From Vezdaea acicularis (taxonomy: Eukaryota), in contig JAPEUI010000028.1 in the NCBI GenBank assembly GCA_026025075.1, positions 62,001 to 126,000 on the forward strand: a stretch of DNA of 64,000 nt, in the 5' to 3' direction. A program made the translations under genes and the position numbers. The notes beneath the pieces are model-generated. The model was not told the DNA's origin. It did no database searches and was given only the letters and a program-made list of their open reading frames with translations. How positions within the stretch are numbered: the first letter of the stretch is position 1; each line of letters opens with the position of its first letter. Shown here piece by piece: positions 19,955 to 49,133 of this stretch.

Positions 19955-20005
19955 GCTAGAAGAGCTATAGCAATTGCAGACCACACGTTTGCCAATTAAC
20001 AAGAA

Positions 20006-23000: not shown

Positions 23001-23675
23001 CCCCGCCCCCGCTCCGCCGCCCTCACCGCCCTCAAAGCGTCCCGCGGGAAAAAAGTCCGGCAGGAACTCACCGACGAAGCCGCCGCCGCGCGCGCCCGCA
23101 AGCGCAGAGAGAACGAACGAGAACGCAACCGCAAGATAAAATCCGCGGTGCTTGTCGGTGATAGCGAGAGCGATAGCGAGGCGGATCGGGAGTTTTTCCG
23201 GCTCGAGGAGGAGCGGAGGAGGAGCTATGCGAGGAAGGTGGGGACGATGATTGGGGCGGGGAGGAAGAGGAAGGGTGCGGAGGGGGAGGGGAGGGGGAAG
23301 AAGCGCAGGGTTGGGAAGGTGCCGGATGGGGATGCGAGTATGGATGAGCAGGCAGAATTTGGTGCGGAGAAGGACAGTTCGTCCTCGCTCGAGGAGCGGA
23401 GTGCGAGTGAAGGAGAGGCCGAGGACGAGGATACGGAGACGCCGCTCTCATCTCCGCATGCGGGTCTCGCGCAGGGAGCGGAGCGGAGTGGGGAGGAGAG
23501 CAGGGGAGGAAGAAAGGGTGGGGTGGCGCATGAGGGCGCGGCGCTGGGTAAGGACGTGGTGATACCTGATGCAGATGCGGATGCGGATGCGGACGAGGAC
23601 GAGGACGAGCTGGTGCGGACGATTCGCCGGCCGAGGACGAAGGCTGGATTCCTGGTGGACAGCGATGATGAGTAG
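20006..23675 (+). CDS. TOF1: Replication fork protection subunit Tof1/Swi1/Timeless, 3 exons
   Basis: YVLGDDALACLKDLKRWL, ELLVPLTWP, SRHNRFGT and AENIQNRIFYE, with a long acidic/basic C-terminal tail. Confidence 0.95.
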
Positions 23676-26153: not shown

Positions 26154-28425
26154 ATGTCATCGACTGGATTTCGACCTATTGCTCCCTCGCAAGATGCGTC
26201 CTCCGAGCGTCGTCAACAAACTCAGACACCATCCTCAATGCCTGGTGCCGTGGAAACTTCGCAGTCGCCAACGGAGTTGGGGCGTTCCACGACTCAAGGA
26301 GGCCGCCGTCGAACACAGCCGTCTCAAGTGACATTGAATGCCTGCACTTCTTGCAAAAAGGCCAAAGCTAAAGTAATTCTCCTTCCTTTCCCTTTCTTCC
26401 GCGGTACATGTTTGACGAGCCTCTGACGTCAAACATGGCCACCGCCACCGTCGTAATCTTGCTGATGTTACCGTTCCGTTCTTCGTGATAGTGCGATGGC
26501 GACAACCCCTGTGAGAGATGTTTCAAACGAGGCATCACCTGCCTGTACGAAACTCACACGAAGACGGCGAAGGAGAAGATGGTGAGAGAAATCAAAGAAC
26601 TTCAAGAACAGCTTCATCAACAGAAGCAAGATAATAAGGACCTCGAGCGGGAGCTCTACTGGGCTCAGCAAGTGCTCGGAGCAATAGTAGCCGCAGATCG
26701 GGTCGACGTTATTGTCGCCAAATTGCAGAAAGGACATACGCCCGAGTCAATTGCTAGAGAGCTAGGCTTGACGTCGGAAGAGGCACTTGGAATGCCACGC
26801 CGACGAGGTTCGGTTAGGGGCTCATCCGTGATTGAAGAGTCCGGGTTGGACGAGCGAAGTAACGACTTTAGCTCCGAACGAAGAACATCTTGGACCCGTG
26901 TCTCCCTGGATCCGTACTTGCTCAACCAGCTGATGCAACTTTACTTTCAGTGGATCCATCCTGTATATATGCTCTTCAGCAAGACGTTGTTCCTGGAAGG
27001 TTTCAACACTAGAAAGGGTCCACATTGCTCTTCGGCCTTAGTCAATGCGATATACGCTGTGGCCGCCGATCTCCTCGATCCCTCCACACTGAAAGCTCTG
27101 GATACGAGGCGACTGATTGACGGGATTCGAGAGGATTTCGCAAATGAGGCACGATCGCATCTCGTGTCGGAGAAAAAGACCACCGCCACCACGGTCCAGA
27201 CGCTCGCCGTCCTCTTCTTAGTAGACTCCGGGGCGGGCGAGACGTCGCAGGCCTCCGCGTACCTAGAAACTGCACTGGTGGGTCAATTGAACCTTCAAAG
27301 TCGCTCGCAAGTGGGTCGTAGATCTCTGAGGATAACGTCGAATGGGCTTTATATATTAGCTGTGTACATCTCCCTAGAAACCAGACTAGACGACTTCCGT
27401 CGGATACTAATAGTGATAGTGCCTGGTCCGCGTCCATCTACCATGTTCCGGATGCTCGTAGACTCCCCGCCATCGACCCGTATTCCGAGGAGGAGCCGGA
27501 GGACGATGACGATAACGATCCCTGGCCACCCGAATACAGTCAAGGAAATGCTCTCCACACCATCGGACTATATAGCTCTACAGCTACAACTCGGCTTAAG
27601 CTCTCCGCGTTGGTCAACGAGACCAACATCCTCTACTACAGCCGGGCGAACAAAGAAATAACAAGCCAAAAAGTCTTGCTCCACTATAGGCGATACTTGA
27701 CATGGAGAGAAGAGCTAGAGAATCAGCTTCTGCCCGATTCCAATGAAAATACTGGAAACCTACCCCACGTTCTATTGTTGCAGTGAGTTCGCCCTTTCAG
27801 AAATCCCTCGAGAACACGTAGAAGATTGGAGGCTAAGGAGCGCAGTATACATTTTCACACCGCCATCGTCCATCTCTTCCAACCTCTGACGGGCCTTCGT
27901 TACCTGCACACGAATGACGAGTTGGACCCCCGCACGATCTGTCTCTCGAACGCCAGAATCGGCTTGGAGGTCATACAGGGGTACCGCCGGCTTTACACGT
28001 GTCGTCGGCAACCACGAGAGCAAACGTTCTACCTGGTCCAGCTCTGCGATGCGCTCGTCAACCTGTCCACGGATAGCGAAGAACGATCCGACGTGATGAG
28101 ATTCTGTTTTGAAGCGCTGGATGAAACACACTCTTGTTCAATCGTGGCGGAACTGCTACAAGACATGTTCCGCCGGATGTTGCTGGATTCGGGGAAGTCC
28201 ATTCCGCCGGTCACAGCGGATCTCATGAGCATGAAGGCGCCCAAGCAGAGTATCAACGAGCTCCGGGACAACCATCCGACGTATCGGCAGCCCCTCGCGA
28301 TGATCCGGTCACGGCTCGCTCAGGGTTTTGAGGAAGGCTGGCCCCACGCTTGGCAAGAGATCATGTCGGAGGAGCGAGGAAGGTCGAAGATGCCGATTGA
28401 AGCCGTCTTGAATCGTGATGGATAA
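26154..28425 (+). CDS. Zn(II)2Cys6 transcription factor with fungal TF middle-homology domain (NirA-like family)
   Basis: ACTSCKKAKAK|CDGDNPCERCFKRGITCLY across intron 26373-26491, then a coiled coil and LYFQWIHP…CSSALVNAIYAVA, TTVQTLAVL. Confidence 0.88.
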
Positions 28426-29832
28426 AAATTTTCTCTCTCTCACACACATGACATGCCATGCAACGCCATTGGCCCATGGGCATCTGTCGTCATGATCTCA
28501 TGGTCTCGAAACATGCCATATCAAAGACCCCTGTTGTATCTCCCCTCGGTCTCGAGCTGCTTCCCCATTCGAGAGAAGAGCAGGCGTTTGAAAATTTTCT
28601 AACAGCAATGACGGGTCCAGCAGTGATACTATCATCTCGGCTCGCTTCTTCGGTCCAGTGCAGGTGGCGAAACAGGAGCTCGAGATCGAGATCGGGAAGG
28701 CGTGAAGCTGGCCCTTCCGGCCGACTGTGGAAGGAGCCTTCGAGCAACCGGCGTCGCGCTTTCTGCGTTCGTCCGCTGACCTCACCCTTCGTGTCTGCGA
28801 GCGTCTGAAGAGCAAGATTTCTTGATTTGTTGATTCCTTAATTCCCTTTTCCTTTGTCCTGTGGATGGCATTCCCTGCCGGAGCGGCGCAGGATGGAAAC
28901 ACAGGCGCAGAGTAACAGCGGCGTCTTTGATAAAGCACGTTTTTTTTGACCCCGCAGGAGAAGCCGAACGCAAGGGCGCTAGCATCCGAGGTCGTAGGAC
29001 ATGCTCGTACGATAGCTCGAGGCGGCGTACTGGGGGCCTATCAGCAATGTATAGTGCAATGAATAGTTATTGGAGATGGTCGCAGCAACGATACTGTTGC
29101 TGCCGCCGTCCCCGTCCCACAAGTCGAACGGTCGAGACCATGTCACGAGTGTCCACCGATGGAGGAGGAGGAGGGGGTCCGCGGGTGAAAGGGGTGGGAT
29201 GGAAGGGAAGCCATGCGCCCGCTGCTCGACGAATCAGTGTGGGGCAGGCGGCGTTGAGGGTCGATGCGGGTGGCGAGCAGGGTTGCCGACCGCGAGAAAA
29301 CATAGGGCCGCGGAAGGAGACGACCGCTCGATGGGAATCTGGCGATGCCCATCCGGCCAGCCACCGGATTGTAGAAAGGAAATATTGACATTGGCATGCG
29401 ATCATGATGAGATAAGCCCCCCCCCCCGCGAGCAGCGACCGGCATGCCCCAGGAATGTTGTCGATCCACGCCACCGTCGTGGAAGCAGCGTCCGGAGGTC
29501 CTCCGACCCGTGCAAAACAAAGGCACGAGCCCCAGCGTTAAGTACTGCTACGGCCTCCGTCTCCATGAGCTAATAGGGCGCGTTCCCCCTCGCTGGTCCC
29601 TGGCCTTAGCGGGTCTGCGTCACGCCGCCGCTCTCCTGCGCTCCAGCGCGAACCGAAAACACCGCTCGTCCACCAGCAATCGACCGCCCGATGTTGAAGC
29701 CTCCAATCCACCGCCAGCGAGCATCTGCAGACCACGGAGGCAAGTCCGCTCGCCCTAAATAAAGTTTCGCCACGCCAAAGGGCTGGGACCCGGTCCCGTC
29801 GCGTTCTCTGCATCGTCGTATGACGTCGCACC

Positions 29833-30393
29833 ATGCCTGATTCGTCCGAGTCCGCCGCCGTGCTCCCGTCGCCTGCGCAACCGCCGGTCTACACCTACCA
29901 CCACTTGTGCAGCCAGCTGCTGCTAGCCAGCACCCATCAGCTCGAGCATCTACGACGCCGCGCCCCTCCGGCTGTCGACAAAGCAATTATCCTCCCGCTG
30001 CCGCCGCCGCCTCGTTCGCCCGACGAGTCGGACGAGGAGGAGGAGGAGGAGCTCGAGTCCGAAGCCGAGGCAGACGCGTCAAGAAGACGAGAGAAAAAGC
30101 TCAACGCGCGAGCCAATGAGCAGCGACAGGGCTACTCCGTCCTCCTATCCGTCACCTACGACAAAAAGCCTATGATCATAAGACGTGATGATGGCTTCGA
30201 GAAGAGGCACATCTTCAGGTGCGGTCGGTGTCGAGGCATCGTCGGGTACGGGATAGACTCTGCGGCGACGGGACATGGACAAGAGCAGGACCTCAAGATT
30301 GCGTACCTGCTCCCCGGCGGCTTGATGACCACGGAAGAGATGCGGGCCGGCAAGGTTTTTACAGAAGAGGAGCTCAGCATGAAGTCGACCTAG
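29833..30393 (+). CDS. STEEP1/CXorf56 (UPF0428)-like zinc-binding protein, single exon
   Basis: YTYHHLCSQLLL and IRRDDGFEKRHIFRCGRCRGIVGY match, as recalled, the CXorf56 motifs YYCLCGQ and [24 protein letters not shown]. Confidence 0.75.
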   Translation: MPDSSESAAVLPSPAQPPVYTYHHLCSQLLLASTHQLEHLRRRAPPAVDKAIILPLPPPPRSPDESDEEEEEELESEAEADASRRREKKLNARANEQRQGYSVLLSVTYDKKPMIIRRDDGFEKRHIFRCGRCRGIVGYGIDSAATGHGQEQDLKIAYLLPGGLMTTEEMRAGKVFTEEELSMKST

Positions 30394-30855
30394 AATGTCT
30401 GTCGTGGCTACTGCATCGTCACGTCGATGTCGCCAAAAGCCTCACGCACATATCCCAAAATTAATTTTTTGAAACTCCCCGCCAAGAGCCTCCCAAGCCA
30501 ACACCATCAAAAAATTACTAGCCAAGAGAGTGGAGATACAAGGAAAATACGCAGGGTCGTCTCAAGGTCCCGCACAGACACTTGGCGCCTGATACGCGCC
30601 CCGGGTTGACCAAATTCGCGCACACTCCACACTTACCCCGCAATGGTCGCGTTATGGGGAGATTGGACCTGTTCTCTTCTTATATTGATGTTGTACTCCC
30701 AGGGTAGACCCTTCGTCAAGCACCTAATCTAGTTTTCAATAGGTCCCATGACCTTCCCGCCCACTCGGTTCCTTGGTCTTTCTCGCCTATTAGGTCTTTG
30801 ACCTAACCCCTCCACCTAACTTCCCCACCTCCTATATCAATCCATCTCCCCCACA

Positions 30856-32010
30856 ATGTGGCCACCCCATTGCCCCGCTCCGCCCTTCCTCTCCGCCCTC
30901 CTCACCCTCCTCCTCCTTTCCACCCCCTCCCTCTCCACCAACGACGCCAGCACCAGCACCGGCCGCACCCCCCGCCAACGCGGCGCCGGCGCCTCCAGCT
31001 CCACCGACCCAGACGACACCCCCCTCCTCCAAGGCGAGCGCCTCCGACACCACATCCAATCCGGCCCCTTCAGCACCTCCTTCATCAACGCCGCCACCCG
31101 CCTCGCCCTCCCCCTCTACACCCTCGAATGCACGCCCCTCGGCACCGAGCCACTAACCTACTACCTCTCCAGCCCCTCCAACCGACGCTACATCTTCCAC
31201 TCCGGGCCCTCCCCGGACCCCGCCCACGAGCTGATCTACTCCTTCCCCTCTGTGCGCTCCCTCTGCGCCACCCGCTCCCTCGGCGGCAGCGCCATCTGGA
31301 ACGCCGGCTTCTACTGCGACGCCTCGCGGCGGCCCCCGAAACTCAAAATCGACACCTCCTCCTCCACCGCCCTAACCCCCAGCGCCGCCCCCATCGCCCA
31401 CTACCTCACCGACCCCGAAATCCTGGACCTCTGCCGCGCCCAATGTTTCTGCATCGGCGGCCTCGACGACCCCGCCCTCCCCTCCACCGAAGCCGCGCGC
31501 CTCCGCCTCAAGCAGATCCGGCGCGGGGCGGGCCGCTCGCTAGGCAAACTCAAAGATGGGATCGGGGGCTTGTTTAGCAAGCCGGGCCAGAGAGTCACGT
31601 ATGAGACTGCGGGGACTGCGCAGGGCGGTCAGGAAGCTCCACCCGTCCTCCCCCTCACCACCACCGCCTCCCGGCGCACTTGTGGCTGGGACGGCCTTCC
31701 AAAGAGCCAATGCACCAGTTTCTCGCATAGCGGCTGTCCCGACGGCTGCGCCTGTTACGCCGAATACGGCGTTGCTGACGTGGCTCTGCCCATCGGTATC
31801 TGTGGACAGTCTGAGTCTGCTGGGTATGGCCGAAAGAGAGATTTGGACTACGTGCGCGGAGAAAGGGGGGATGGGGAGTACGGTGAGGTGGGGTGGCAGG
31901 GAAGGATGTGTCCTTGTAATGCCACCTATATCAGCGAAGCCTGTTGCGGGGCAGTAGATGGCTTAATTTGGGAGGTGGGAAGGGGGATGGGGGGATTGTT
32001 TTTAGGCTGA
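30856..32010 (+). CDS. Secreted cysteine-rich protein, single exon
   Basis: 384-aa ORF with a hydrophobic signal peptide (LSALLTLLLLSTPSLS), clustered Cys (CRAQCFC; CPDGCAC; CPCNATYISEACC) and a Kex2-like RKR site. Confidence 0.72.
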   Translation: MWPPHCPAPPFLSALLTLLLLSTPSLSTNDASTSTGRTPRQRGAGASSSTDPDDTPLLQGERLRHHIQSGPFSTSFINAATRLALPLYTLECTPLGTEPLTYYLSSPSNRRYIFHSGPSPDPAHELIYSFPSVRSLCATRSLGGSAIWNAGFYCDASRRPPKLKIDTSSSTALTPSAAPIAHYLTDPEILDLCRAQCFCIGGLDDPALPSTEAARLRLKQIRRGAGRSLGKLKDGIGGLFSKPGQRVTYETAGTAQGGQEAPPVLPLTTTASRRTCGWDGLPKSQCTSFSHSGCPDGCACYAEYGVADVALPIGICGQSESAGYGRKRDLDYVRGERGDGEYGEVGWQGRMCPCNATYISEACCGAVDGLIWEVGRGMGGLFLG

Positions 32011-32916
32011 GCTTGCCCCTGAGCCGAGCTTATCCTCTCAGCTAAGCTTTGCTTTTTGGGCTGACATTGCTTTAAAGCAAGGACGGAGAGGGAGATGGGG
32101 TTGTGGGCTGCATAGGACAGATGAAAGTGGGATTAGGATTTTTGGGAAGCGAGCGAGCGTTGATGATGATATGAAATATTTCAAACCACTGCTTTCCCCC
32201 CATTAATCGTCGAATACATCCATATGCCACGTGAATGATCCTTGTCCGGCCCCGCAATCCGCAGGTCCATGAAGCATGCAAGGACAGCATACACCCAGAA
32301 CAAGAATACCATTTTTTTTTTGGTTTCAAATCTAGCCAACCAATCCACCAACCAAACAAAAAAAACAGAACTTTGTGACCCGATAAAAAAAACCTGGAGC
32401 GAGGGCGCCTCCCAGGCTGAAGGCTGTGAAATGTTGTGGGAGAAAGACCTTAGACTGGTCTGCATGTCTCGAGGGGGAAAGGAGAGGAAAAAGAAGCAAG
32501 AAGCAAGAAGAAAGAAAAGGGTAGAAGAAAGAGAGGAGGAGGAGAAGGACGAGGAGGGAGAAGGGGCGCGAGGGAAAATGGAGAGGTATTTGCTTGCGGC
32601 AAAGCTCTGATGATGGAAAAATCAAGAAGAGAGACAACAAGCCCTTCCTTGGATCCTCCGCTGAACAGACGATAGAAAGAGGATGAGAGGGTTGGTTGTC
32701 CTTTTCTGCATGAGCTGGTGAAGCAATATTGTGCGCAGGCGGACAATCAGGAGTAGTAGCTCAGGTTTGCTCGAAAGGTTGGAATTGAGGATATCTACGC
32801 TAGCCGCTCGTCGATCTTGGGGTAGGCAGGTCAAAGAACGTCGGAGTCAGACGCTTGATGAAGACGACAACAACAATTGAGCGCGAAGGATCTTCGAGAT
32901 GGAGGCAACGGCTTGT

Positions 32917-34384
32917 TTACGGGGCGGGGGAGGATTTCGGGTTGATGCCCTTTAGCTCGACATCACTAGGTGCCTGATGTCAGTCGGTGGTACTTTTTAC
33001 ATTGTTGCTGCGGATGATTCTCCCACACAGTGGGTGGGCAGGGCTAAAGAGTACGTACAAAACGAGGGTTGAGTTTGGAGGGATCAGGCCGGGGAATCCG
33101 CTGTCAGTCGCTTGGGTTAGCTTTTGATATAGAGGTAGACATTCCGAAGGTCTTCTTGAGACAGAGAAAGTTTTGGTGTGATCTGCGAGCTTCGAAAAGG
33201 AAAGGCAGGACCCCAAGAAAGCGTGAAGCCGCCGGACGTAAGGACAGGGAAGCAGCCTCGCGGTGCAAATGACCATGCCATGTCGTTGAAGAAACGAAGA
33301 TTTCGCTTGGAGAGCTTACCCTTCACCGTAGGCAAAATCACTATGGGAGGCCATTCATGGTCAGTATGAAGCTTCGACCGAAAAGGGAAAGAGACATGGG
33401 GTCTATCTCGGCGACCATGCATAGCCCGCTGGCCGCGTGTGGATCGACAAGGGATCTTTCTGAGACGGGGGCAGAAGCAAAGAAAAGTGAAGTATTGGAT
33501 GCATGGGGGGCGTGAGTGGGGGTAATGACTGAATAAATGTGCAAATGAGGCTCGTGGCATTCGACAAGTTACCAAAGAGCGTGGGGACGGAGAGTGGGGG
33601 GAGACAAGCCACACAGAGCCTGGCGCTTCGAGAATGACGGCCCTTACCTCGATATGATCAGAGTAGCTTTCTCGCCCAGAGTCATCGTGACGACACCCTC
33701 ATCCCAACCTAGAACAAGTTGTCCGGATTAGCAATTCTCTTCTCAAGTCTTGAACAAAAAGTGAAGGTTCCTCGTCTGCCGCGTTTAGAGCGGGTATTCG
33801 GGCCATCGCGGCAGTTGAAGCGAGGGAGGGGAAAAGTCGTCGGCAGGCGAGGGTCGGTCGGCTAGAACGTTCGTTATCGATAGCAGTGCGCCGTCGATCA
33901 TCGCTTGCAACCCAAATGCTCGTACGCAGCGATTGGTCGCGTCTGTTGCCCGCCGGCAAGAACACCACCGTCTTTCGACCGCATCCGCGAGAGAAAACGC
34001 ATGACGACGTCCAAGCGTAGTCTCATGATATGGTACGACGCCCGCTTGCCGGGGAACGGAGAGGGAAGTACCGTACCTCGAATGACTCGACCCACCCCGA
34101 TCGCAGTATGGAAGTCGCCCCGGCCGACCGAGGAGTCGAATCTTTGGGAGCGGTCAGTTCAGCTTCGCGCACAGACGATGTCAATCGACCTTGGGCATCT
34201 TTGTGGTGCAAGATGGTGAAAGAAACCAAGGATCGATGACAGTGGATGGAACTTACAAGCTCCCCTTCTTCTCAAAGGCCTTGTCGTCGTACAGGAAGCC
34301 AGAGTACTCGATGAAAACCGAGTCGCCCTTCTTGGGCCTGTCGGTGCCATTGCCCTCCTTGATGACCAGTTTGTGCACGCCCAT
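32917..34384 (-). CDS. FPR1: FK506-binding protein FKBP12 (peptidyl-prolyl isomerase), 6 exons, 121 aa; missed by ORF track
   Basis: Exons 34384-34257, 34141-34077, 33708-33648, 33340-33320, 33100-33059 and 32965-32917 join to MGVHKLVIKEGNGTDRPKKGD…FDSSVGRGDF…GVGRVIRGWDEGV…[40 protein letters not shown]. Confidence 0.95.
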
Positions 34385-37300
34385 CTTGGATGTCTTGGGG
34401 TTTGTAGCTTGCTTGAGAGGGTGCCGGTTCTTTCGTGGACGTGAGGTTGGGGGTGGGGCAATGATTATGGCCGTCTCAAGTGACTGTTGGCTCTCTCGAA
34501 GTAGGTTTTTCTTGTTGGGATGCGTTAAGCAGGGTAGTCAGGCACAAGTCCACGTTTGGTGATCGGAGCTGGGAGGAACCTAAGGAAATTGGGAGGGCGC
34601 GTCGCGGGCTTTAAAGTTCTCAAGCTCGGGGCGACGGTCGTAGTCCGCGAGGAGGGGGCATAGCGTAGCCGCAACTAAAACTATACACCATAGCGGGCGG
34701 AGAGGGGAGAGACCACAACAGCGCCGCGAATGGAGTGGAGGCCAGCAATCACATCAGACGGCTGCGCTGTGTGATACGGCTGGTACTTGCTTGTGGGTCT
34801 CCCCCAATGCGACTCGCGGAGGTTGAAGCTGCCATGCCTGCGCTGCTTAGCCCTCCCCTTGATGCCCGTGTAAGACAGACGGGTAAGAGAATCCAGCATA
34901 CGGCGACGGCTGAGGACCTCTCTCTCTATCTACAGGCAGGTGGAATATCGATGACAACCAACAATTCCTCCATCTTTGCCTTCGCCTTCGCCTTCAACTT
35001 CGTCTTGCGTCACGAATGCTCGGGCCAAGCTCCACTTCGCTTGCCCAGACCTGCAGTTCCATCATATTCGAGGTCGAGGTAGACGCACCGGACGGCCAAC
35101 TCAATTGATGGACCTCAGTCGCCAATGGAAGCGCCCCTGCCCCGGGGTCACTCGCGGCCGCCGGGCGCCCACGCCGCAGCTTTTGCAGTTCGGCCCACTT
35201 GATTGGACGCTTTTTCTTTTTTTTTCACCCTCTCCAGATGTGAGCATCTCTAAAACATGTCCGCATCTGTCGTCGAGGTGAGGAAAGGCTGCGGGCCTGG
35301 GTGTGTGTGGCCTGTGAGAAGTGCCGTCGAGCCAGTCGGTGGTCGAGCACGCACGAATCAGCATAGCCCCGCAGACGGAGCGCATGGCGCGCAAGGAAGC
35401 GTCTTCGCGCAATGCTCACACTTCATGTGCCGGGACCCCTCTCACCGGGGTCCGGCGGCCCACGGAGGTCTCCCGACGGCCGGAGCTCGTGGGACCGAGC
35501 GATGGCAGGCACCCCGCTCAGGCCCGGCCAAGTTCGTGGCTCCGGCTCGAACTCGCAGGCAGAGTGGGAGTGAGGGAGAGAGAGGGCGAGAGCGAGACGG
35601 CCAGGCCGCGGCTGATGGTTCTCGGGTGCGGTCCAGCAACAACTCTAAATGACGGCTCTAAACGCGGGCCGGCACCCATCGCGGCCCGTCCGACTCGACA
35701 TACGGGCTCCCCCCCTTCCCCCCCAGATGACGCCGACCCGGCAGACGGTTTCGTGCAACGAGCAGCTGCAGCCCCATCTGCGGCCCCACGGCGCGCGCGT
35801 GGCCGTGGCCCTTCCATCGTTTCCATTGCCAGTGCAGATTCCACCGACGCTGCAGATCCACGATCATCCCACATCTATCGACACGGGAACCGTGTTTGTG
35901 GTCGGCGGGCGGTCGTGACCCATTCGCCCCCGCCTATGGCCGTGCGTCGTGGAACCGGGTAGCTGATGCACCCGCCAGATCCGCCCTCGATGCCGCCCAC
36001 GCGAGGAGCTTCAGATGATATTTCCCATTGGCCGGGCGAGGATCCAGTTCCGGCACTAATTAGCATCGGCCTTGTGCGTGGACTCCTGGGATCGATCCAA
36101 TCTGGAGGGGCGGGCGCCCTGAATGCTGTCTTCTCGCTGGCCGAGTCTCAGGTCGAGAAAAAGCCCGGCCCCACGCCAGGCCGGCGATATCTTCCGGATG
36201 CCCCTCTCCATCACGGCCAACCGCCATTCAAAATCCCCTCTTTCCTTATCTTCCATCAGGCAGCTATCCGCCTGAGCGTGAGAAGCGTGAGGGAGCACGG
36301 AGCACGGTTGCGTAGAGCACGTCAATGCACCTGAAGCATCGTTTGCTCTGCACGAACGAGGTGGTGGCGGCGGCGCTACGAGCGCGGCCAAACTTCAGTG
36401 GAGAGGGAGCTTGCCAATAGCCAGATCCGTGTGGTAGGATGCAGAAGAGAATGCCCAATTGGACCTCGGGGTGGACCTGCTGCCGCATCTGCGTTGGAGA
36501 TGGCGTCTGGGATTCGAGTCGACGGTTGATATACCGCTGGATCGGCGGAGAAGGGAGGTTGAGAAAAAAAAGCCACCGTGATGTTTGCTGGAGGAGGACG
36601 ACGACGTCCCACCTGTCCCCAATTGCGCTCAGGCCCTTCTAGTCTCCTTCTGGGATACTCGCTGCTTGAGGCTTATCAGGGTAAGAGCTTGGCTCATGAG
36701 ATCCTTCTGCATGATGATATTAGCGACGTGCCACGGGCCCTCACCCATTACTCGCATGGTATCTCGAAACAGACCATGCGTGGGCAAGGAGAAAAGACCG
36801 GCCGATCTCTTATGTAATTTGACGTCGACCGATCCAGTACCCAAACCGTCATCCCCCTTGCATGTCGGACGAAAGAGGACAAAAAATGTTGAGACTGGAA
36901 ATGGTTGTGGGGAGCCCTTGATGATTCAAGGCTGTCAACAACTACAGAAGCCCGATATCGGCTTGGGCGAGATGACGTGTGTTTGTGCGGACCTGAAGAC
37001 GGAGAGGGTTGAGGACGGGTCATGGTTGCAACTTCGCATTCACATTCGACGTCGACGGCTATGATTTCAAGTGATGACCCAGATGGCTGATCGACAGCCC
37101 CAAGGACTCGGGGAGACAGGGTATAGCGGTGATTGAGTTAACACCCCCAGATCTACCGTAGATCTAGATGCGTGAGTGTGACGGCCCATCCAACGCTCAT
37201 AGGCGGGCCAAGGCTCGACCTCGGCATTTCACGCTTCGGGAAGGGGTGGAGGGACGACACACTAGAAATGTACCAGGTCAAAACCTTGTGGCTCAGGAAA

Positions 37301-37730
37301 ATCACCGAGTTGCTTTTCGTTTCATGATGTATCGATGAGATTTGTGTGCAAAAAAAAAAAAAGAAAAGAAAAGAAAAGGAAAAGCCGTAGAAGGGATTCT
37401 CCAAACGCAGGAAAACCAGCCAAATCGAAAAAGTCCATAACGCGGAATGATTTTATCCAATAATCTTTCAGGATCAGAAAAGGACCCCCCAACGCCCCAC
37501 GCCTCTTGCAGAAAAGGGAAAAAGAGATGAATCCTAAGTGCAGCTTCCACCTTGCCCGCGTTGGAATTCCCTAGAGCGCTTGCGACCGAGAAAAGACGAT
37601 GTACAAAGAAGTTCAGTTCAGGATGGGAGAAGGAGATCAGGACCATTTCCGCGCAACCGTAATCTCGCGTTCCAACCAACGAAAGGGGAATATGGCTATA
37701 GTGTGCCTGCGCTCCCCAACTCAAGCAAAC

Positions 37731-39811
37731 TCAAATGTTACTGACGAAAAGAGTCAACTTGGAGTTTCTTTCTCTTGCCATGTTCAAGTCGTTGTTTGTC
37801 ATGAGCTCCACGTAAGTATTACTCGGCTCATCCTTATACTGAACCATGATGTCACCTTCGATGTGCAGCCTCTCCAACAGCTTTTCCTTCAACTGCTCAA
37901 ATTTAATGTCAGTCTGCACGCGGATAGCAATTAGATCGTCTTGGTAATAAACTTTGATCTTCATAGCGCCGGACGTATTCGATCCGCCGGCCCCTTGTGA
38001 CCCAGCGGATTCTTGTGTGATCGAGCTCGCTTGCCTGTTCATGCCCGGATGAAAGTCTGAAGGGTTTCGGAAGTGACCGCCTGGTGCACCAGGCATTGCC
38101 TGTTGTGCTCGCTGGTTATTCGGCCTTGCGGGCGGTGCGGAGAGTCCAGGCTGTTGCCCGCTTCCGTTCAAATCCCCTCGGGAGGACTGGCGAGAGACGT
38201 CTTCCGGTGAGTCGTTCGAAGACCTTTGAGATGTGCCAGAAAGTCTGTAGTCGTCCAATGGTGCGTTGGGGTCGATTTCGAAATCTCCGTCTCTTGGGGC
38301 AAACAGCTGTCTGACCAAGTGACATTTCGAAATATAGGGAGGCATAGTTAGCAGCTTCTTGATGTATTCATCTAAATTCTGCCGCCGTCCGTTCGAAATA
38401 GCATCAGTAACATAAGTGACGGGGCCCGGCATGAACGGTAATGTTCTCGGCTTTCCTGCATTGCCAGCTTCCTCAGGGAATTGTGTCAACAGCGCTATCT
38501 GAAAGTCATAGAAGTCTTGGTAGAACCGAGAAAGTTCCCAGTGCCGCCCGTCCTCCATTACCGCCTCAATAATGTACCAATACTTCTCGTTTGCAAAACA
38601 GAACCGAGGTATGTTGGCTGATATGGGAGCCATGAGCTGTGCCGATGAAGGTCGCGAATTTGTCCTCACTGAGGTTCCCCCAGTCCTTTCTGTCCGTTGA
38701 GGAACATTCTGGCCCGCAACCTGCTACATGCGTAAGTGGCCAAATACATCCATTCATAAGAGACTCTAAGCTTACGGTGTTACTATTAGTATTGCCATTT
38801 CGATGATTTGGAGCACCGTTCTGCAAACTTAATCGCTCCATGCCCTCCTGCATGGATGATGTACCCTGTGTTTCGAATCTACCCAACGATATGCTGCTAT
38901 TCTTGTAGTCTGCAGCCATCTTTTTCCATTCCTCTACTTTTGGGACACCAGCCCTCTGCACCGCTTCTTGCGCATCCGGAACAGCTTGTCCGGTTGTCAT
39001 ATCCCTAATCTCAATGAACGACACTGGGATCAGCCCTGGCCCGCCTAGTCTGCCGATAGGCTTTGCTACAAACCACTCAGGGTTTGATTGGGCAATTACG
39101 ATGATTGCTTCCCCAGCCGTTGCTTCAAGTTCGTCCGGTCGTTCTGCCACAAAATCATATTGTACTATTCCGTACACCATTGCTCCAGAGCCTTTCCCGA
39201 TCGATCTTGATAGTCGCATTGGCTGCGGAGCATTATCAGACGGGACAGCTGCAGCACCAGTAGCAGATCGTTCCGAATATCCTGAATCATTGTCTGGTAC
39301 TCGATTGCTTGTGTTAGAAGTGGCAGATCCCGCACTATCCCTTTCTGTTCTTCCTAGCACCTGGAAAAACTTGACGGGTACCAAGCCTCTCGCATTTGGC
39401 ATGGAGGGGTTGCATGCCTCATACCAGTCCTCATCATTCTCTCGGCCTATAACATGGAAGAAGTCCCCGCGAGAAAAGCTTAGTTCGTGTGGGTGCTCGG
39501 GATTAGCTTCATAATCGTACAGAGCTCGGATGACCTATGTGCCAAGAATCGAAAAGTCAGCGATCGCAAATAGAACCAAAAAGGCATAAATGCCCACAGA
39601 TCATAAACAATTCTGATTGGGATAGAATCGCATACCTTTTTTGGTGGGACTATCGCAACGGCGTCTTTCTGGGAGATCGATTTCTGATGGCGGGGCGCAG
39701 ATGTGTCGTTCCCTTTATCTCCTCTAATGGACCTTCTAATAGCCTGTGTAATTGATGAGCCCAAAGCGTTCTCAAGGTTATTCAGGTTTCCTTGGAATGG
39801 CTGACCTTCAT
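37731..39811 (-). CDS. BEM1: Polarity scaffold Bem1/Scd2 (SH3-SH3-PX-PB1)
   Basis: 6-nt first coding exon (ATGAAG at 39811), then AIRRSIRG. Two SH3 domains (YDFVAERPDEL…WFVAKPIGRLGGPGLIP), a PX domain (RFYQDFYDFQIALL) and a PB1 domain (KIKVYYQDDLIAIR). Confidence 0.94.
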
Positions 39812-41936
39812 CTCTGCGCTTAGACAACGTTGCTTGCGTTGTTATTGGGAATCAGGAGAGACGAAGATAGTTCGGTCGAGACAACTCTGCAACCAGGTCG
39901 ATATTATGGACTAAGTGCATTCGTGGTGATAAAGACGGAAGGCTGAGCTGAAATTTAAGGGTGTTGGCTTTGTCAAAGTCTGCGGACTCGGTGAAAGCCC
40001 TGCGATCTGTGACGTGTGCAGCCTTGAGCGGCAGAGCCTATCTCATTAATGTCGGTGTACTTGTGCGAATACCCGAGCCTTCGGTCTATAAGTCCAGTGT
40101 TGTTTTATTCTCGAAAGAGAGTGAAGAAGTTGGGTTCGTGACTGATGTTACCATGAGGGGTTTCTTCAGTCGTCTGGTACACTGTAGGGCGCAGGCGACT
40201 GACGGGCGACGTTTCCCAGAAAACAAGCTACGAGGTCCGGGATTTTTAGCGCTACAGCACTTTGCTCTAGCCGGCAAGCTATCGGAGAAAAAGCACAGCG
40301 GCGCAACAAAGCAAGAAAGGTCTCATGTAAAAATTATTTCAGGGGAGATTCTCAGTGACAAGTTTATTCAAGTACCGACAGGCATAAGCAGTGGAAGTCC
40401 GCAAAGAACAGGAGACGGACCCGTACATTGGCATGCCACCTCTGCCTTCATGAAACCCCCTGCGTGTCCCCGACTGCCAATATATCACATGCGGAGTCGA
40501 CTCACTAATTCTTCCTGAATCCTTTCATTCCTGCAGTTTGTGTGCATTGAATATTTGATGACTCCGAGTTCTCGCGCACATTATTCTTGTCGTTACAGGG
40601 CTAGAACATTGAGTGAAATCTACGTTTTGGATACGGCGCGTAGAGGAGCAAAAATAGCTGTTGAGAGACGGCGATCACACTCATCGTCACGCTCCCTGAT
40701 TGGACTCGCTTTGAAACCAATGATCGAACTGTTATTGTCTACCTCATTCTCTACTGCCTGCGAACACTGGACGATGCCCAACGCACATAGGTAATGTTGA
40801 TTTTGTCGGAGGCCCATGAAAACTCTTCGTACAAAGCATCATGGGCCTATTTTCCGCCCAGGACAAACACCCAAGACCTTGGCATCATATATATGGGTTC
40901 ACCTTTAGAGCATACTAAGACAGGGGGCTTACAATAAACCTTTGCCCTTGATAAGAACTTGGTAGGACTGATGCTAGTAATATAAGCAGTCTTAGGCGAT
41001 GGAAGACTAACGGATGCGCTCTGGCCTTCTGTATAGGTCTTGCTTAAGATGTACACCATGATGAGAGAGGAAGATTGCCGTAATGATTAAGACATGTGCT
41101 TTGCATCCTGTGTCTCATTATATTATTGCTGGCCCAGCGGGCGAAGTCTTGAGATGTCACTACGGATATCTCGATCATTCAATGTTTGAGGGAAAAGTCA
41201 CTGCTTGCGGGTTCGATCAATGCAATGCTTTTTATATAGCAATAGCGCTGCCGTGCCTGAACCAGATCAATGAGACCCGCTAGATGTTGGGAGTACATTG
41301 ATAAAAAAATCAAATTATACTTAGGATTCAGCCCCAAGCATGTCGTGGCTTATCCTAATTTCATGACGAAGGAAAGAAAACAAATGATGCAAAATCGCTT
41401 GAGGTGCAGGCCAAATAATCCAAGAAAACCATGGCGAAGGTGTTCACAGAACCCTTTAGGAGACCGAGTCGTGATGTCCATGCTCCTTGACGCGGTCGCG
41501 AGCTATATGAGATGAGCTTGATATTGGGGCCAAGGTGTGTACTTGTCCTGCTCGTCTAATGTTGCATGCAACGTCTAAGGATAGTGATTGACCACTACTG
41601 TTTCTTCTTATTGAAATATGAAGTAGCTAAGCAGTGTGGGTTTCAAGTGGGCATGAAAGCCGGAAAGTGTAAGATTGTTAGTATGTATTGTGGCCAGGGC
41701 TTAGAGTCGCGAGAAGGTGGAATGAAAGCTGGAAGCAGAAGAGGATATCTTCGAAGGAGATGTAATCCGTAGCCTGAGGATTATGCTAGAAACGTGAATC
41801 ACCATTCCCCTAATGCAGGTATGATATCGTCAGAAGGATATGGAGTGTAGACAAAGGTCTTCATAATGGTGCCCGTCCGAGAGAAATGTGTTAGTAGTGG
41901 CATGGAGGGGTTGGCTTTCAATCTCGATATATGTCC

Positions 41937-44003: not shown

Positions 44004-45962
44004 ATGTCTTTTCAGCGCATCGATCTCACAACTGCATTACGTCCCTCACTTTTGCACGGCGAGACCCTTCTATTCGTCCAAGATTGTGTAGGGCTCTACC
44101 AAGGGTACCATAAAGATCTTACCGTTGTTTAGAATTAGAGTAGGCTCCGAGGCTGATTCGATCTAAAACAAATAGGAAATACAAGATATCCAAATGTCAG
44201 AACGGTCATGCCTACCTCACATCTCATCGCGCCTGTTACGTAGATAACGAACAACCTAGAGAGTATTCGGTAGCAATTGAATTGAAGGATGTTGAGCGCT
44301 ATGAGTTCTACGTGCGCATAGACCTTTTCGTGCTAGATGGCAAGCAGCTAATACTGTGTCTAGGCAGGTTTCCTAAAGTCTTCTCCTAAAGTCACATTCT
44401 ATCCCAAACCGCCAAAACGTCTTAACGCTCCTATTCGGCCAAGCTCTTTGATCTCACCCTCACGTAGTTCTAATGCATCGCCATTTCAGCAAACCCCAAG
44501 TCCTGTACCTTCTCTCGCGAGTAATGCTACTTGGATATGCCCCATATGTTCACTATCAAATCCGGTTCCATCGAATTTCGACCCAGGGACAGCAACTGCC
44601 GATACACCAATGCCCTCCTGCCTTACATGCGGGATGCAACCTCCCTTCTCACATATGGTCAAGGCTGCAATAAGGAATGCAAGACATACGCAGCCGGTGG
44701 CTCTGACCCAAGTTCCCAGTCAATCTTCAATAGAGGGAGACGCTCAGGCTGGAACAGTCATCCCAATTGTTCGTGCTCCAGACTCGTCATACCCTTGCCC
44801 TCGCTGTACCTTTCTCAACCACGCCTCTTTGCTAGCTTGTGAGATGTGTGGTGCACCCTTGACGGCTGTGGGTGCGGCTCGTGAGCTACTGGGTACAGCC
44901 AATGGGTTCCGTTCGGATTCCCCTGGACCTTCACTCGATGAGGTAAATCTCGGGGCAGGGACTGGCGAGAGCGTAAAGATCTCTTTTCGTGGCGGCGGCG
45001 AGAAGACTTTTCATGAGCGCCTCGGAGGGGCTATGATCCAACGGAAGTGGTTGTTATATGGGGCACCTCCCATACCTAAGCCTCATCAATCTTTAACTTC
45101 TGAGAATGCTGATGATCTAGAGGGCTTTTTAGGATCAAGCAAAGGGTTCTCACGGACTCCGTCAGGTCGGGCGAAGAACTTCGGTGTTGCTGGACTGGAG
45201 AATCGAGGCTTGGAACTGCAGAAAAGTACCGAGGTTGTAATTGGCAACGCCTTTGAAGATCTTGAAGCATTGAAAACTTCAGCAAAGGAGATCATTCAGT
45301 TGGCAGAACGCTTTGCGGGTCACATCGGCAACACTTCCTTGGGAAACTCGGCCGAAATTGGGCTTCTTCTTTCTCAATCAGCTAACGCCGTCGGCCTTGT
45401 TACAACCAAAGATATGCTTGGCTCCGGAAGCAACTCAGAATCTCTATACCTCTCCGAACTATCTCGTAATCTAGCCGAATTCCTTACGGATGATGTGCGA
45501 GATCTACTTCGTACCGAAGGTGGGATGATGAGCCTCGTAGACTTGTGGGCTGTATTCAATCGAGCCCGAGGTGGTGTGGAATTGGTCAATCCCTTGGATA
45601 TAGAAAAGGCTGTGATGCTGTGGGAGAAGCTCAAATTGCCCGTGCGCTTTAGAAAGTTCAAAAGCGGACTACGCGCAGTGCAGAGTAATACGTGGAGTGA
45701 TGACAAGATTGTTGCTACACTGCTCTCTTGGTTGCAAGACAGGCACGTTGAACACCCATCTGCGGAAGTAAGATGGGACTGGCGTCAATTTGGTCGAGGC
45801 GTAACCGCGCAGGAAGCAGCCGATCGATTCCATTGGAGTGTGGCAGTCGCAACAGAGGAGCTTGAAACGGCTGAGGAGAGAGGCTTGCTTTGCCGGGATG
45901 AGGGCATGGAAGGCGTACGATTTTGGGAGAACATGTTTCTTGAGTTCTCCAAGCGTGCATAG
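44004..45962 (+). CDS. VPS36: ESCRT-II subunit Vps36 (split GLUE domain, two NZF fingers, EAP30 winged helix)
   Basis: MSFQRIDLTTALRP…, WICPICS…C, CPRCTFLNH…CEMC, AFEDLEAL and NRARGGVELVNP. Confidence 0.93.
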
Positions 45963-46571
45963 GCAGATAATCCTTTATCTTGGATTGTCGTCATGGCGCA
46001 GGTGTGTTGTCGTGCATATTAGGTTAAGGTCGTCCATCGGCGCATTATCACTCTTATGATATCATGAGACAGCACGAGCAAAAGATGGCGTCTCCAAGGG
46101 GTTTCATGGGATAAGACGTATCAGGGGCATATCCATAGAATGAGGAGGCAGCCTCTAGATGTCATTAAAGTCAGGCTCAAGTTATGCTGCAATAATGATA
46201 AGACGGCAAAAGAAGAGCTAAATATCAAAGGAATCAGCCAGTCATGCTCTTCATTGCAAGACGGATAGTCTTTGGTCTGGGTAAGAAAGGCTCTTTAGAA
46301 GCACTTTGTGAACCATGCATCATTGTGACGGTCAGACTATCAGTCGCTTGTTCCCTGATACGTGTGGCGTAGATAGTCCTGTAACCCATACAGAGCGGAA
46401 ATATTACACCAGATGAAGAAAGGGGGGTTTTCATTTCTAAAAAAGACCGAAACTCTGCGACGCTATGGGACGAAATTGCGAGGACTTGTTTTAGCTCAAA
46501 GGAAAGGTCTTCGCTTAGATTGAAGTCACGAAAAATAGTTCAATCGAGAGAGGCACTCACCAATAATGAAT

Positions 46572-46591
46572 AAAAACTGGAAAATGAAAAA
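46572..46591 (-). terminator. Pol III oligo-T terminator downstream of the tRNA
   Basis: T5 (46591-46587), T4 and T5 runs starting 10 nt after the discriminator base. Confidence 0.7.
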
Positions 46592-46600
46592 TCAACCACA

Positions 46601-46725
46601 CACCCTACTCGGGACTGATGCGAGAACTGTCAGCGCAAATTTAAGATTGTCGAGAATTATTTCATACCTCGAACCCGAAACCTTCAGATTAGGAGTCTGA
46701 CGCGCTACCATTGCGCCAGCAGAGC
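46601..46725 (-). tRNA. tRNA-Arg(CCU) split by an intron in the T-loop (exons 46725-46668 and 46614-46601)
   Basis: Spliced 72 nt: GCTCTGC TG GCGC AATGGTA GCGC G TCAGA CTCCTAA TCTGA AGGTT TCGGG TTCGAG|T CCCGA GTAGGGT G. All four stems pair; anticodon CCT. Confidence 0.93.
46615..46667 (-). other. 53-nt U2-type spliceosomal intron inside the tRNA, between positions 59 and 60
   Basis: GTATGAAATAATTCTCGACAATCTTAAATTTGCGCTGACAGTTCTCGCATCAG: 5'SS GTATGA, branch GCTGAC (46634-46629), 3'SS CAG. Confidence 0.85.
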
Positions 46726-47010
46726 AGAATTTTCTGTAATTTCTGTTATTAATTTTTATCAACGTATCATGCTAAATATACTACAATCAGTCGAGCTAAA
46801 GTCTCAAAGTGAAACGTTTCGTGAGGTTATTGCGCTGCAGGAACAAGAAATGCAAATACATTTGCGTGTTACTATTTGCTTCGCAAGTGTGGAAAGCTCT
46901 CTATGCAGGGATCGAGTGCTTTTTCTCTGGTGCTGGTGTTATACTTGGCCTCAGCAAGGCGGTCAAGGCCTGATAGTGACCTGATATAGGAAGGCCTCAA
47001 AGCCTGGACG

Positions 47011-49133
47011 ATGGAAGACTTTTCTCTGTCTATTCGGGTGTGGCCAGATGTCAGGCCTAGCGGTGATGAGCTGCCACTTCTAATCTCAAGAATCAATGAG
47101 CAACGCGGACCGTTCAAGAACGTAACAGAGGGAAGCCTTAAGGCAGAGATTCGCTCTTTCGAGCCAGGCGATACTCCAATCACAAAACACGGAAGCGAGA
47201 AAGAAGATAGTAAGACGGGGCAAGATGATATAGCGGCTAAAAAGGAAGAGCTGCTGAAAGCTCGAGCTGAAATAGGCAAGCATGTTGCGTGAGTCGACAG
47301 GGTAACCTGTCTCTGAAGATACATTTGCTAACAAAATTTAGACAAGCTTTTCAGGATGTACACCTGGCTCTCGACTTTATCTCTCTCCTCCTCACCAAAG
47401 TCTCTCCTGTACAAGCAAACATCTCATTGAGTGACCATGTAAAACAGCACGTTCCAAGCGGTGTACTTGGTGCCGATAAGATCTCGGCACCCTATTTCTC
47501 GCCTTCTGATACAGCGAGCAATCTCAATCAGATCACGAGCGGATGGAAGCTCCAAGGGCTAAATTCTGCAGCAGATGCGCTACTCCAGTCTGCTAGCAGG
47601 CTCGAGAATGAGATCAAAAAGGAAGCCAGATACTGGGACCAGATACTACAAGTCAGCGAAGAAAAGCTAACAATCTCAAAACTGCCTAGAGAGCGACATT
47701 CTCTATGTGTTAGGTATGGGTTTTCTGAATCAACACAGGAATTCAAAGACCGTGGCACCGCCGCCCTAAGACTCGAAGAGGATGGTAACGTGCTCTTTGA
47801 CCAAGGCATAACTGCGTCGAGCCCACGTGCAGTTCGAATACGGATTGAAGAGAATGGGCAAGAGATTGGTGCTTCAGAGATACCTCTGGTTTTGAGAGAT
47901 AATACCTTAACGTCATCTCTGATATATCAAGCAAGCAACTCACTGTTCGAAGAAGAGCTGTTTTACGAGCTCGTTCGGGAGGCTCGTGGCTTGACTAGCC
48001 AGGGGATACGCATCAGAGATGGAGCTGTAGTCCTCTCGATTCCTCCAAAATTGGTTGTGATCGATCTCGTCGACCTTCCGCTTAAGCCCTCTACCTCTCG
48101 ATCTGGCTGCTCTGAATTGCCGCTGTCATCACTTGCAGAGGCCATTATAATCGCGTTACGGATCCTTCTCGCTCATGCACATACTCTAAACCTTCAAGCC
48201 CGCTCGGTTCCGCCGCCGCCTCTGAGCGAACGTAAAATCACGCGGCCGTCCTATGCACTTTTACGTCCAGTCCTCACCTACTTGAACTACTTCAGAGCCA
48301 GACTTAGCCTGAAAAGGTTCCTATCGGCGCTACTATCGCCATTTGCAGCCGCAGGCCTCGAGACTTCTCTTGACGCGTCCATTGCTTCTACGGATTTATC
48401 TTCTCATAACACGAAGGATAGATTTCTAGCGTATGCTGAAGATGATTGCATAGCACCTACTGACGTCGTTCAATCTTTCCTTGAGCCGTTGACACTCGAA
48501 GTCCTGGTATCCCTTCCCCCAAACCTTAAGGTCCGTATCAAAGCGCAGACGCAGTATTACCCACATGCGCTCGGAACATCGTATTCAGTCTCCATTTCAT
48601 CATTTCATTCCTCACGTAATTCGTCACCGTCGGCCCCTGGAACGCTTGCTCAACTCTCACAAGAGACACCTAGCTTCTCAACACTAGAAGATCTTTCTGC
48701 TTTTATGTGCCACCTTGCTGGACTCGCTCTCACAGAGGTCATCCTAAATTACTCGGCTTCTCGCCAAGCCGTGAATGGGTTGCAGGGTTCTTGGGATACG
48801 GACGAAAGTGCTCCCGGAGTCGAGGGATGGCGGGCTCTAGTAGGAGGTGGACCGATAGGCGAGCTAGAAAAGAGGTATAAGAGAAAGGGAAAGTGGAAGA
48901 AGTTGGGTGTGAAGGTGGATGTGAACAAAGCTGGAAAGGGTGCGATACGAGTATCTTGGGGTTGGCTTGCAAGTGAAAATACGGATGGAAAATCTAGACA
49001 GGTCGGGGAAGTTGAGTGGATTGGCAATGCTGGAGGAGCAGATTCAGAGAAAAGAACCTTTAAGGAAGTCATTCAGGAAGCAGGAAGATTTGAGCTTGGG
49101 TCAATAGCAGAACGAGCAGCAACAAGTATTTGA
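47011..49133 (+). CDS. SRB4: Mediator subunit 17 (Srb4), 2 exons
   Basis: LISRINEQRGPFKNVTEGSL, ALDFISLLL, GWKLQGLNSAADALL…EARYW, VRYGFSES and NSLFEEELFYELVREAR. Confidence 0.9.

Follow-up and report, generated by a model that had tools for sequence, protein, structure and literature searches.

A nuclear tRNA-Arg(CCU) gene with a probable spliceosomal intron in its T-loop in a Pezizomycotina fungus

We analyzed a 64-kb stretch of Vezdaea acicularis DNA (contig JAPEUI010000028.1, positions 62,001 to 126,000; hereafter the window, whose own numbering is used throughout) and found an interrupted tRNA-Arg(CCU) gene on its minus strand, at 46725-46601, as a unit of 125 nt. The gene breaks off inside the T-loop and is completed on the far side of a 53-nt insert that has the ends, branch-site motif, and size of the mRNA introns deduced from the same window. 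We interpret the locus as probably a working nuclear gene of a Pezizomycotina fungus, transcribed by RNA polymerase III (Pol III) and carrying a U2-type intron between T-loop positions 59 and 60 that would be removed by the spliceosome. In the pathway we propose, Pol III would transcribe the whole 125-nt unit, and the spliceosome would recognize the GTATGA donor, the GCTGAC branch site, and the CAG acceptor, releasing the 53 nt as a lariat and joining G59 to U60. The T-arm and acceptor stem would form after splicing, and RNase P, RNase Z, and the CCA-adding enzyme would finish the tRNA.

Anatomy of the interrupted gene and its insert

Exon 1 contains the 5' strand of the acceptor stem, the D-arm, the CCT anticodon arm, a five-base variable loop, the 5' strand of the T-stem, and T-loop positions 54-59, and exon 2 supplies what is missing (Table 1). 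Joined, the two exons make a complete 72-nt tRNA-Arg(CCU) in which the D, anticodon, and T stems are all Watson-Crick (5/5 pairs in the T-stem) and the acceptor stem is paired at 7/7 positions, three of them G-U. The original prediction had placed the break in the cloverleaf inside the T-loop with the remainder resuming exactly 53 nt later, and this holds to the base in both coordinates and pairing. Its three splice signals, GTATGA, GCTGAC with a branch A at 46630 lying 15 nt from the insert end, and CAG, could likewise all be read where it had put them. AG ends the insert as well as exon 1, and for this reason the identical joined product results from any of three cut registers (57/58, 58/59, and 59/60), of which only 59/60 gives GT-AG ends. 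The insert has a GC content of 0.38 and no T run longer than 3, and it splits the B-box after the first 8 of 11 positions, which are intact by the box consensus.

Standard tRNA finders missed the gene in the intact sequence, as the original prediction had expected. ARAGORN reported 0 tRNAs in the intact 64-kb window and made no call on the precursor with or without its intron option, and 0 Rfam matches reached the gathering score in the window. Over no more than model positions 8-63, the Rfam tRNA model scored 28.1 bits, short of the cut-off of 29, and this was the sole tRNA-like match in the 64 kb. The prediction had also proposed scoring the spliced against the unspliced sequence: when the exons were joined by script, ARAGORN called a 72-nt tRNA-Arg(cct) that it did not call in the precursor. 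Exon 2 is unique within the window. When both window strands were examined, CCCGA with seven bases behind it that can all pair with the 5' acceptor strand turned up a single time, at this gene. In a blind excision test, we removed each GT..AG stretch of 40-85 nt in the window singly (n = 1,743) and ran the remainder through ARAGORN. One of the 1,743 excisions gave a tRNA across the junction, and it was that of the 46615-46667 insert. A tRNA-derived short interspersed element (SINE) or a truncated tRNA relic does not fit the locus, as the 3' strands of the T-stem and acceptor stem resume after 53 nt and pair at 5/5 and 7/7 positions.

For comparison with mRNA introns, we collected GT..AG stretches with a CTRAY motif that joined long open frames and were needed to keep those frames open, which gave 56 candidates in the window, a number that includes alternatives sharing a donor. 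The short inferred introns were mostly 46-57 nt long and five were exactly 53 nt, and the GTATGA donor was found at four distinct donor sites. The branch A of the CTRAY motif lay 9-14 nt from the 3' end in these introns, placing the 15-nt distance in the tRNA insert at the upper edge of the class. In ISN1, tblastn recovered two exon blocks with a GTAAGT donor between them. The tRNA insert carries the marks of a U2-type intron, namely the GTATGA donor, a CTRAY branch motif, the CAG end, and a host-like length of 53 nt, and the claimed match to the window's mRNA introns in signals and size is borne out for introns that are themselves inferred. Folding of the precursor was no better than that of shuffled sequences (z = -0.17), which fits an unstructured intron, and a structured or self-splicing insert was rejected on the same value. 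An introner-like element or MITE, which would be expected in many near-identical copies per genome, was also considered; within the 64-kb window the insert has no second copy (best other match 12 nt).

Further interrupted tRNA genes in metagenome contigs

A narrow scan of metagenome contigs for an Arg(CCU) anticodon loop and a T-loop followed by GT gave 0 matches and hence no orthologue in this collection. A broader pattern required GGG at the end of the T-stem, the T-loop through G59, a donor reading GTRWGW, 33-63 bases of any kind, AG, and then TCCC, and it matched at 26 loci. Unspliced, 0/26 loci gave a tRNA in ARAGORN. Excision of the GT..AG stretch alone produced one at three of the 26 (L011, L017, and L021), and L005 and L013 gave tRNAs once further inserts were removed as well. 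These five loci represent four distinct tRNA genes, each with a 49-55-nt GT-AG insert at the T-loop site of the window gene. With all inserts removed by script, the joined forms of the window gene and the four others were all called by ARAGORN without its intron option (Table 1).

Several inserts were found within single genes. L021 has a 10-nt insert at 37/38 and a 49-nt GT-AG insert in the T-loop (GTGAGT, TCTAAC, CAG). L013 has three: in the D-loop a GT-AG insert of 49 nt containing ACTAAC, at 37/38 one of 39 nt that is not GT-AG, and at 59/60 a GT-AG insert of 54 nt. Its anticodon is that of Arg(cct) if the anticodon-loop insert is set at 37/38; ARAGORN's own placement of that insert read otherwise. 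L005 spans ~290 nt and has four, with GT-AG inserts of 48 nt at 26/27 (the first, containing a T4 run), 49 nt in the long variable arm, and 52 nt at 59/60, and a 17-nt insert at 37/38. A second tRNA-like start lies ~60 nt downstream in L005.

Two visibly different classes of insert thus occur within the same tRNA genes, GT-AG inserts outside the anticodon loop and non-GT-AG inserts at 37/38. The eight outside the anticodon loop (five in T-loops, one in the D-loop of L013, and those at 26/27 and in the variable arm of L005) are 48-55 nt long and run GT..YAG, ending in CAG or TAG. Their donors are GTATGA, GTAAGA, GTGAGT, GTAGGA, GTAAGT, or GTATGT. A CTRAN motif lies 11-15 nt from the end in 7/8 of them, while the T-loop insert of L013 has TTGATA instead. 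The inserts at the canonical 37/38 position, which coexist with GT-AG inserts in L021, L013, and L005, measure 10-39 nt, have neither GT nor AG at their ends, and contain no branch motif.

Pairing across the inserts was kept with different bases. The T-stem pairs left free by the pattern, 49:65 and 50:64, are T:A and C:G in the window gene, G:T and A:T in L011, and G:C and T:A in L021, L013, and L005. The acceptor stems of the five genes differ in sequence, and four of the five pair at 7 of 7 positions, with one G.A mismatch in L011. All four Arg genes have G as their discriminator, and the Leu gene has A. A run of five or more T lies within 25 nt of position 73 at 5/5 metagenome tRNA loci as well as in the window gene, and none occurs inside any insert of the five genes. 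The pattern did not ask for branch motifs, T5 runs, stem pairing, or discriminators. The three GT-AG inserts at other sites, also not selected by it, were delimited by the cloverleaf, and their edges fall on GT and AG. To the original prediction, the AG|GT junction of the window gene looked like insertion at a proto-splice site; the three extra inserts follow exon ends T, G, and G, not AG.

The remaining 21 of the 26 loci were mostly GC-rich. L003 and the GC-rich loci were rejected for a T-stem that does not pair, and L026 and L007, in which it does, were rejected as tRNA genes for lying inside open reading frames (ORFs) of 198 and 203 aa. As a control, the broad pattern was searched in 596 billion bases of prokaryote genomes, where 0/15 matches gave a tRNA across the junction; at one of these a tRNA-Leu that is not related to the match lies 60 nt upstream. 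The two collections together gave 36 matches that are not tRNA genes, of which 2/36 had a branch-like motif at 8-20 nt and 1/36 had a trailer T5 run.

Table 1 Features of the interrupted tRNA-Arg(CCU) gene in the window, and tRNAs called by ARAGORN after joining of exons in the window and at metagenome loci
Feature	Position	Strand	Remarks
AT-rich, TATA-like stretch	46746..46760	-	21-35 nt upstream of position 1; putative role
Exon 1	46668..46725	-	58 nt, tRNA positions 1-59; from the Rfam tRNA model and the ARAGORN cloverleaf of the joined form
A-box, intact	46706-46718	-	inside the D-arm of exon 1
Insert with GT-AG ends	46615..46667	-	53 nt, between T-loop positions 59 and 60
Donor GTATGA	46662..46667	-	read in the sequence
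Branch-site motif GCTGAC	46629..46634	-	branch A at 46630 (15 nt before the insert's 3' end)
Acceptor CAG	46615..46617	-	read in the sequence
Exon 2	46601..46614	-	14 nt: T60, 3' strand of T-stem, 3' strand of acceptor stem, discriminator G73
T5 run, Pol III terminator-like	46587..46591	-	10-14 nt after the discriminator
Joined tRNA, window	 	 	Arg(cct), 72 nt
Joined tRNA, L011 / L017	 	 	Arg(tcg), 72 nt; the two contigs do not differ in sequence
Joined tRNA, L021	L021:1-662	 	Arg(tct), 72 nt; contig Ga0255336_100209, 120 kb
Joined tRNA, L013	L013:1-667	 	Arg(cct), 72 nt; contig Ga0181459_101335; clean cloverleaf
Joined tRNA, L005	L005:1-614	 	Leu(aag), 82 nt; contig Ga0210392_10102050

Removal of the insert, transcription, and function of the gene

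Removal. We searched the inserts for a bulge-helix-bulge (BHB) motif, defined as two 3-nt bulges that hold the cut sites with a 4-bp helix between them. In the window insert the central helix had 1, 3, and 2 of its 4 pairs in the three registers, with weak flanking helices, and over the T-loop inserts of the five genes it was found in 0/15 register tests. The known route for off-site tRNA introns therefore does not fit. The 37/38 inserts likewise failed the strict test, so that it excludes a BHB of the archaeal or red-algal type only and not every action of the endonuclease. The splice signals, the lack of a BHB, and the recurrence in four further genes support the original prediction that the T-loop of a tRNA-Arg(CCU) gene, intact in all other respects, contains an intron of the spliceosomal type.

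A functional gene whose insert is cut by a protein enzyme, either the tRNA splicing endonuclease acting off-site or a nuclease together with a ligase, with GT-AG ends that are incidental, is in our view very unlikely. It would agree with the ambiguity of the cut register by 2 nt, and with the account in PMC12530127, by which all described eukaryotic nuclear tRNA introns use the endonuclease. However, none of the five genes has a BHB in any register, the 37/38 inserts of the same genes are of a different class, and the branch motifs found at 11-15 nt in 7/8 inserts, compared to 2/36 chance matches, would serve no role in such a process. The position of the window insert is shared with archaeal non-canonical tRNA introns, which are known at 59/60 and which would favor an enzyme of this kind, but those introns are BHB-dependent and have no splice signals. 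The eukaryotic ruler mechanism measures to the anticodon loop and not to the T-loop.

Transcription. We propose Pol III as the polymerase because the A-box and the first 8 B-box positions are intact, the T runs of the insert are no longer than 3, and a T5 run follows the gene. The insert might otherwise be removed by the spliceosome from a longer RNA made by RNA polymerase II (Pol II), from which RNase P and RNase Z would then release the tRNA, and this we judge to be distinctly unlikely. Recruitment of the spliceosome is normally coupled to Pol II, and L005 would be awkward as a Pol III unit, given its ~290 nt and three GT-AG inserts, one with a T4 run. The split A-box of L013 and the split B-boxes of all five genes point the same way. 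On the other side, a T5 run no more than 25 nt past position 73 is a Pol III hallmark, present in the window gene and 5/5 loci versus 1/36 of the other matches, and no insert contains one. The window gene also sits in a ~1.3-kb gap between Vps36 (ends 45962) and Med17 (ORF from 47271), on the opposite strand and with no host ORF.

Conservation. Contigs of four runs were aligned to window positions 45700-47500 at 80% likeness. Another sample from the same study yielded a 232-nt contig that covers 46551-46782 with 2 differences, and the insert is therefore no artefact of a single assembly. Run X5 contained a syntenic 10.5-kb contig (record 8) from a relative ~9% diverged, with 75 differences and 10 gaps over 780 nt and then 70 differences and 3 gaps over 838 nt. 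This contig aligns to 46479 and again from 46663, the latter part taking in exon 1 and 5 nt of the insert. Between these points (46480-46662) the relative has a block of the same length, 183 nt, that is too diverged to align at 80% and takes in the bulk of the insert together with exon 2 and the 3' flank, while the intergenic DNA on either side is ~90% alike. Since the block is equal in length, the 53 nt were not lost and the insert is not absent from the relative.

Other contigs in these runs resembled the tRNA. Look-alike tRNA contigs with canonical, uninterrupted 3' halves were present in X5, X6, and X7, with depths that differ from the depths of the contigs of the relative. Three look-alike contigs (in X2, X5, and X6) resemble exon 1 at 80-90%, after which each runs on into unrelated sequence starting with GT (30 letters visible). 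In X2 record 6, a 229-nt contig, this sequence begins after T60, in X5 record 11 it begins immediately behind the T-stem, and in the X6 contig it begins within the variable region; the depth of X2 record 6 was 3.78, against 3.7-4.8 for the fungus's own contigs. These GT-continuing contigs may be further interrupted tRNA genes with inserts at other positions. A G1-U72 wobble opens the acceptor stem in the window gene, in L021, and in one canonical X7 look-alike, and may be a trait of the tRNA family.

Function. That the gene is a dead tRNA-Arg(CCU) relic seems unlikely. In that case an intron-like piece would have inactivated it, by reverse splicing and reverse transcription or as an introner-like element, and another copy or Arg(UCU) wobble would read AGG. 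The three G-U pairs in the acceptor stem, the interrupted B-box, and the Rfam score under gathering would all suit such a relic, as would the uninterrupted look-alikes of X5, X6, and X7 but for their depths. Yet every stem pairs in an unbroken cloverleaf, the T5 run is kept, and the ~9% diverged relative keeps exon 1 together with a block of the same length. Four other genes keep the pairing across their inserts through different bases, with discriminators that fit their anticodons and with T5 runs, which would be unexpected of decay. The lack of a second insert copy in the window also speaks against a relic, as does, weakly, the lack of an uninterrupted look-alike contig in X2, a run from a second sample of the study, contigs being able to show presence but not absence. 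In the 13 Pfam-supported ORFs of the window, AGG accounts for 67/470 Arg codons, and a tRNA-Arg(CCU) would therefore have a use.

Several points weigh against a working, Pol III-transcribed gene with a spliceosomal intron. The first is that a functional product, its transcription by Pol III, and spliceosomal removal of the insert are all inferred from sequence-level features. Three G-U pairs in the acceptor stem, including G1-U72, are weak for a tRNA; G-U pairs are also found in the acceptor stems of the four metagenome genes. The interruption of the B-box after 8/11 positions may impair binding of TFIIIC. To our knowledge, spliceosomal splicing of Pol III transcripts is known only for U6, and an intact Arg(CCU) copy may exist elsewhere in the genome. 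Because the search pattern demanded both the donor and AG in the T-loop inserts, these two signals are independent evidence only for the three extra inserts, and the flanks of L005, L011, L013, L017, and L021 contained no convincing coding ORF by which to place the host organisms. In the X5 relative, the evidence on the insert and exon 2 is their length, and conservation of the splice signals and of exon 2 there is conjectural; moreover, the joint rests on 80% likeness in a run of metagenome type, a setting prone to intrusion by foreign contigs.

Host setting. Seven DNA-type runs from three studies contain parts of the window, which occurs in runs labelled moss metagenome. The window is fungal nuclear DNA, with Pfam matches to Ski2, adaptin, Timeless, a fungal transcription factor, a PX-PB1-SH3 protein, and SAC3, and further matches to Vps36, Med17, ISN1, ATR, and amidase. 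The best named relatives of its ISN1 (73-76% identity) were from Xylona heveae, Sarea resinae, Geoglossum simile, and Coniosporium apollinis, all members of Pezizomycotina, and the collection compared contains no closely related sequenced species. The GC content was 0.51-0.60 in positions 20001-40000, which hold the Timeless, fungal transcription factor, and PX-PB1/SH3 genes, compared to 0.45-0.48 elsewhere.

Known systems and meaning of the finding

Tani and Ohshima (1989, 1991; cited in PMC5855946) reportedly described mRNA-type introns in the U6 snRNA genes of Schizosaccharomyces pombe and Rhodotorula. Like the window gene, these are Pol III-transcribed small RNA genes with a short GT-AG intron and a branch site, and in U6 removal by the spliceosome is known. 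Unlike in the window gene, the host RNA is itself part of the spliceosome, and the intron sites lie near its catalytic region and have been read as the outcome of mis-reversed splicing. In the window gene the host is a tRNA, the site is in the T-loop, and splicing is predicted.

Spliceosomal introns also occur in the nuclear ribosomal DNA (rDNA) of ascomycetes, many of them lichen-forming (Cubero et al. 2000; Bhattacharya et al. 2000; PMC11889510). Reverse splicing into abundant RNA is the favored origin of these introns in PMC11889510. As described in these sources, the rDNA introns resemble the tRNA insert in being small and spliceosomal and in sitting in a conserved part of a structural RNA gene not transcribed by Pol II, in Pezizomycotina, and they differ in that the genes are transcribed by RNA polymerase I and the host is rRNA. 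In Cyanidioschyzon merolae, tRNA genes have introns in their D-arms, anticodon arms, and T-arms that are defined by BHB motifs, as reported in PMC9602550 and PMC3978253. L013 and L005 resemble this layout, with several introns outside 37/38 in D- and T-arms. By the same accounts, the C. merolae introns rely on the BHB and the tRNA endonuclease, whereas the inserts described here have no BHB, are about as long as fungal mRNA introns, and bear GT, YAG, and a branch motif.

Eukaryotes have three unrelated types of intron in the classification given in PMC12530127 (2025), which assigns spliceosomal introns to Pol II transcripts and describes canonical tRNA introns as sitting at 37/38 and being cut by the tRNA endonuclease. 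Searches of the full-text literature, subscription journals and supplements excepted, turned up no paper describing spliceosomal introns in tRNA genes. The candidate is a known kind of intron, the spliceosomal one, in a host where it is undescribed, a tRNA and Pol III gene.

We lean slightly towards a wider view in which the nuclear tRNA genes of some fungi, including this moss-associated Pezizomycotina lineage, have been colonized by spliceosomal introns in the D-loop, at 26/27, in the variable arm, and in the T-loop, with up to three beside the 37/38 intron. Maturation of such tRNAs would need both the spliceosome and the tRNA endonuclease, the spliceosome would act routinely on Pol III transcripts, and standard annotation would systematically overlook some of their tRNA genes. 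Neither ARAGORN nor the Rfam model detects such genes, and apparent gaps in the tRNA sets of fungal genomes and metagenome-assembled genomes may be artefacts. Excising candidate introns and rescanning finds these genes with very few false calls, having given 1 call among the 1,743 candidates in the window. If the reading of a spliceosomal intron in a Pol III-transcribed tRNA gene is true, it would add a new, third route for eukaryotic tRNA introns beside the endonuclease at 37/38 and the off-site BHB. It would also mean that, beyond U6, the spliceosome has a second class of Pol III substrate in tRNA, with recruitment in the absence of Pol II testable on a small substrate, and would support reverse splicing into abundant structured RNAs as a source of introns, as has been proposed for ascomycete rDNA.

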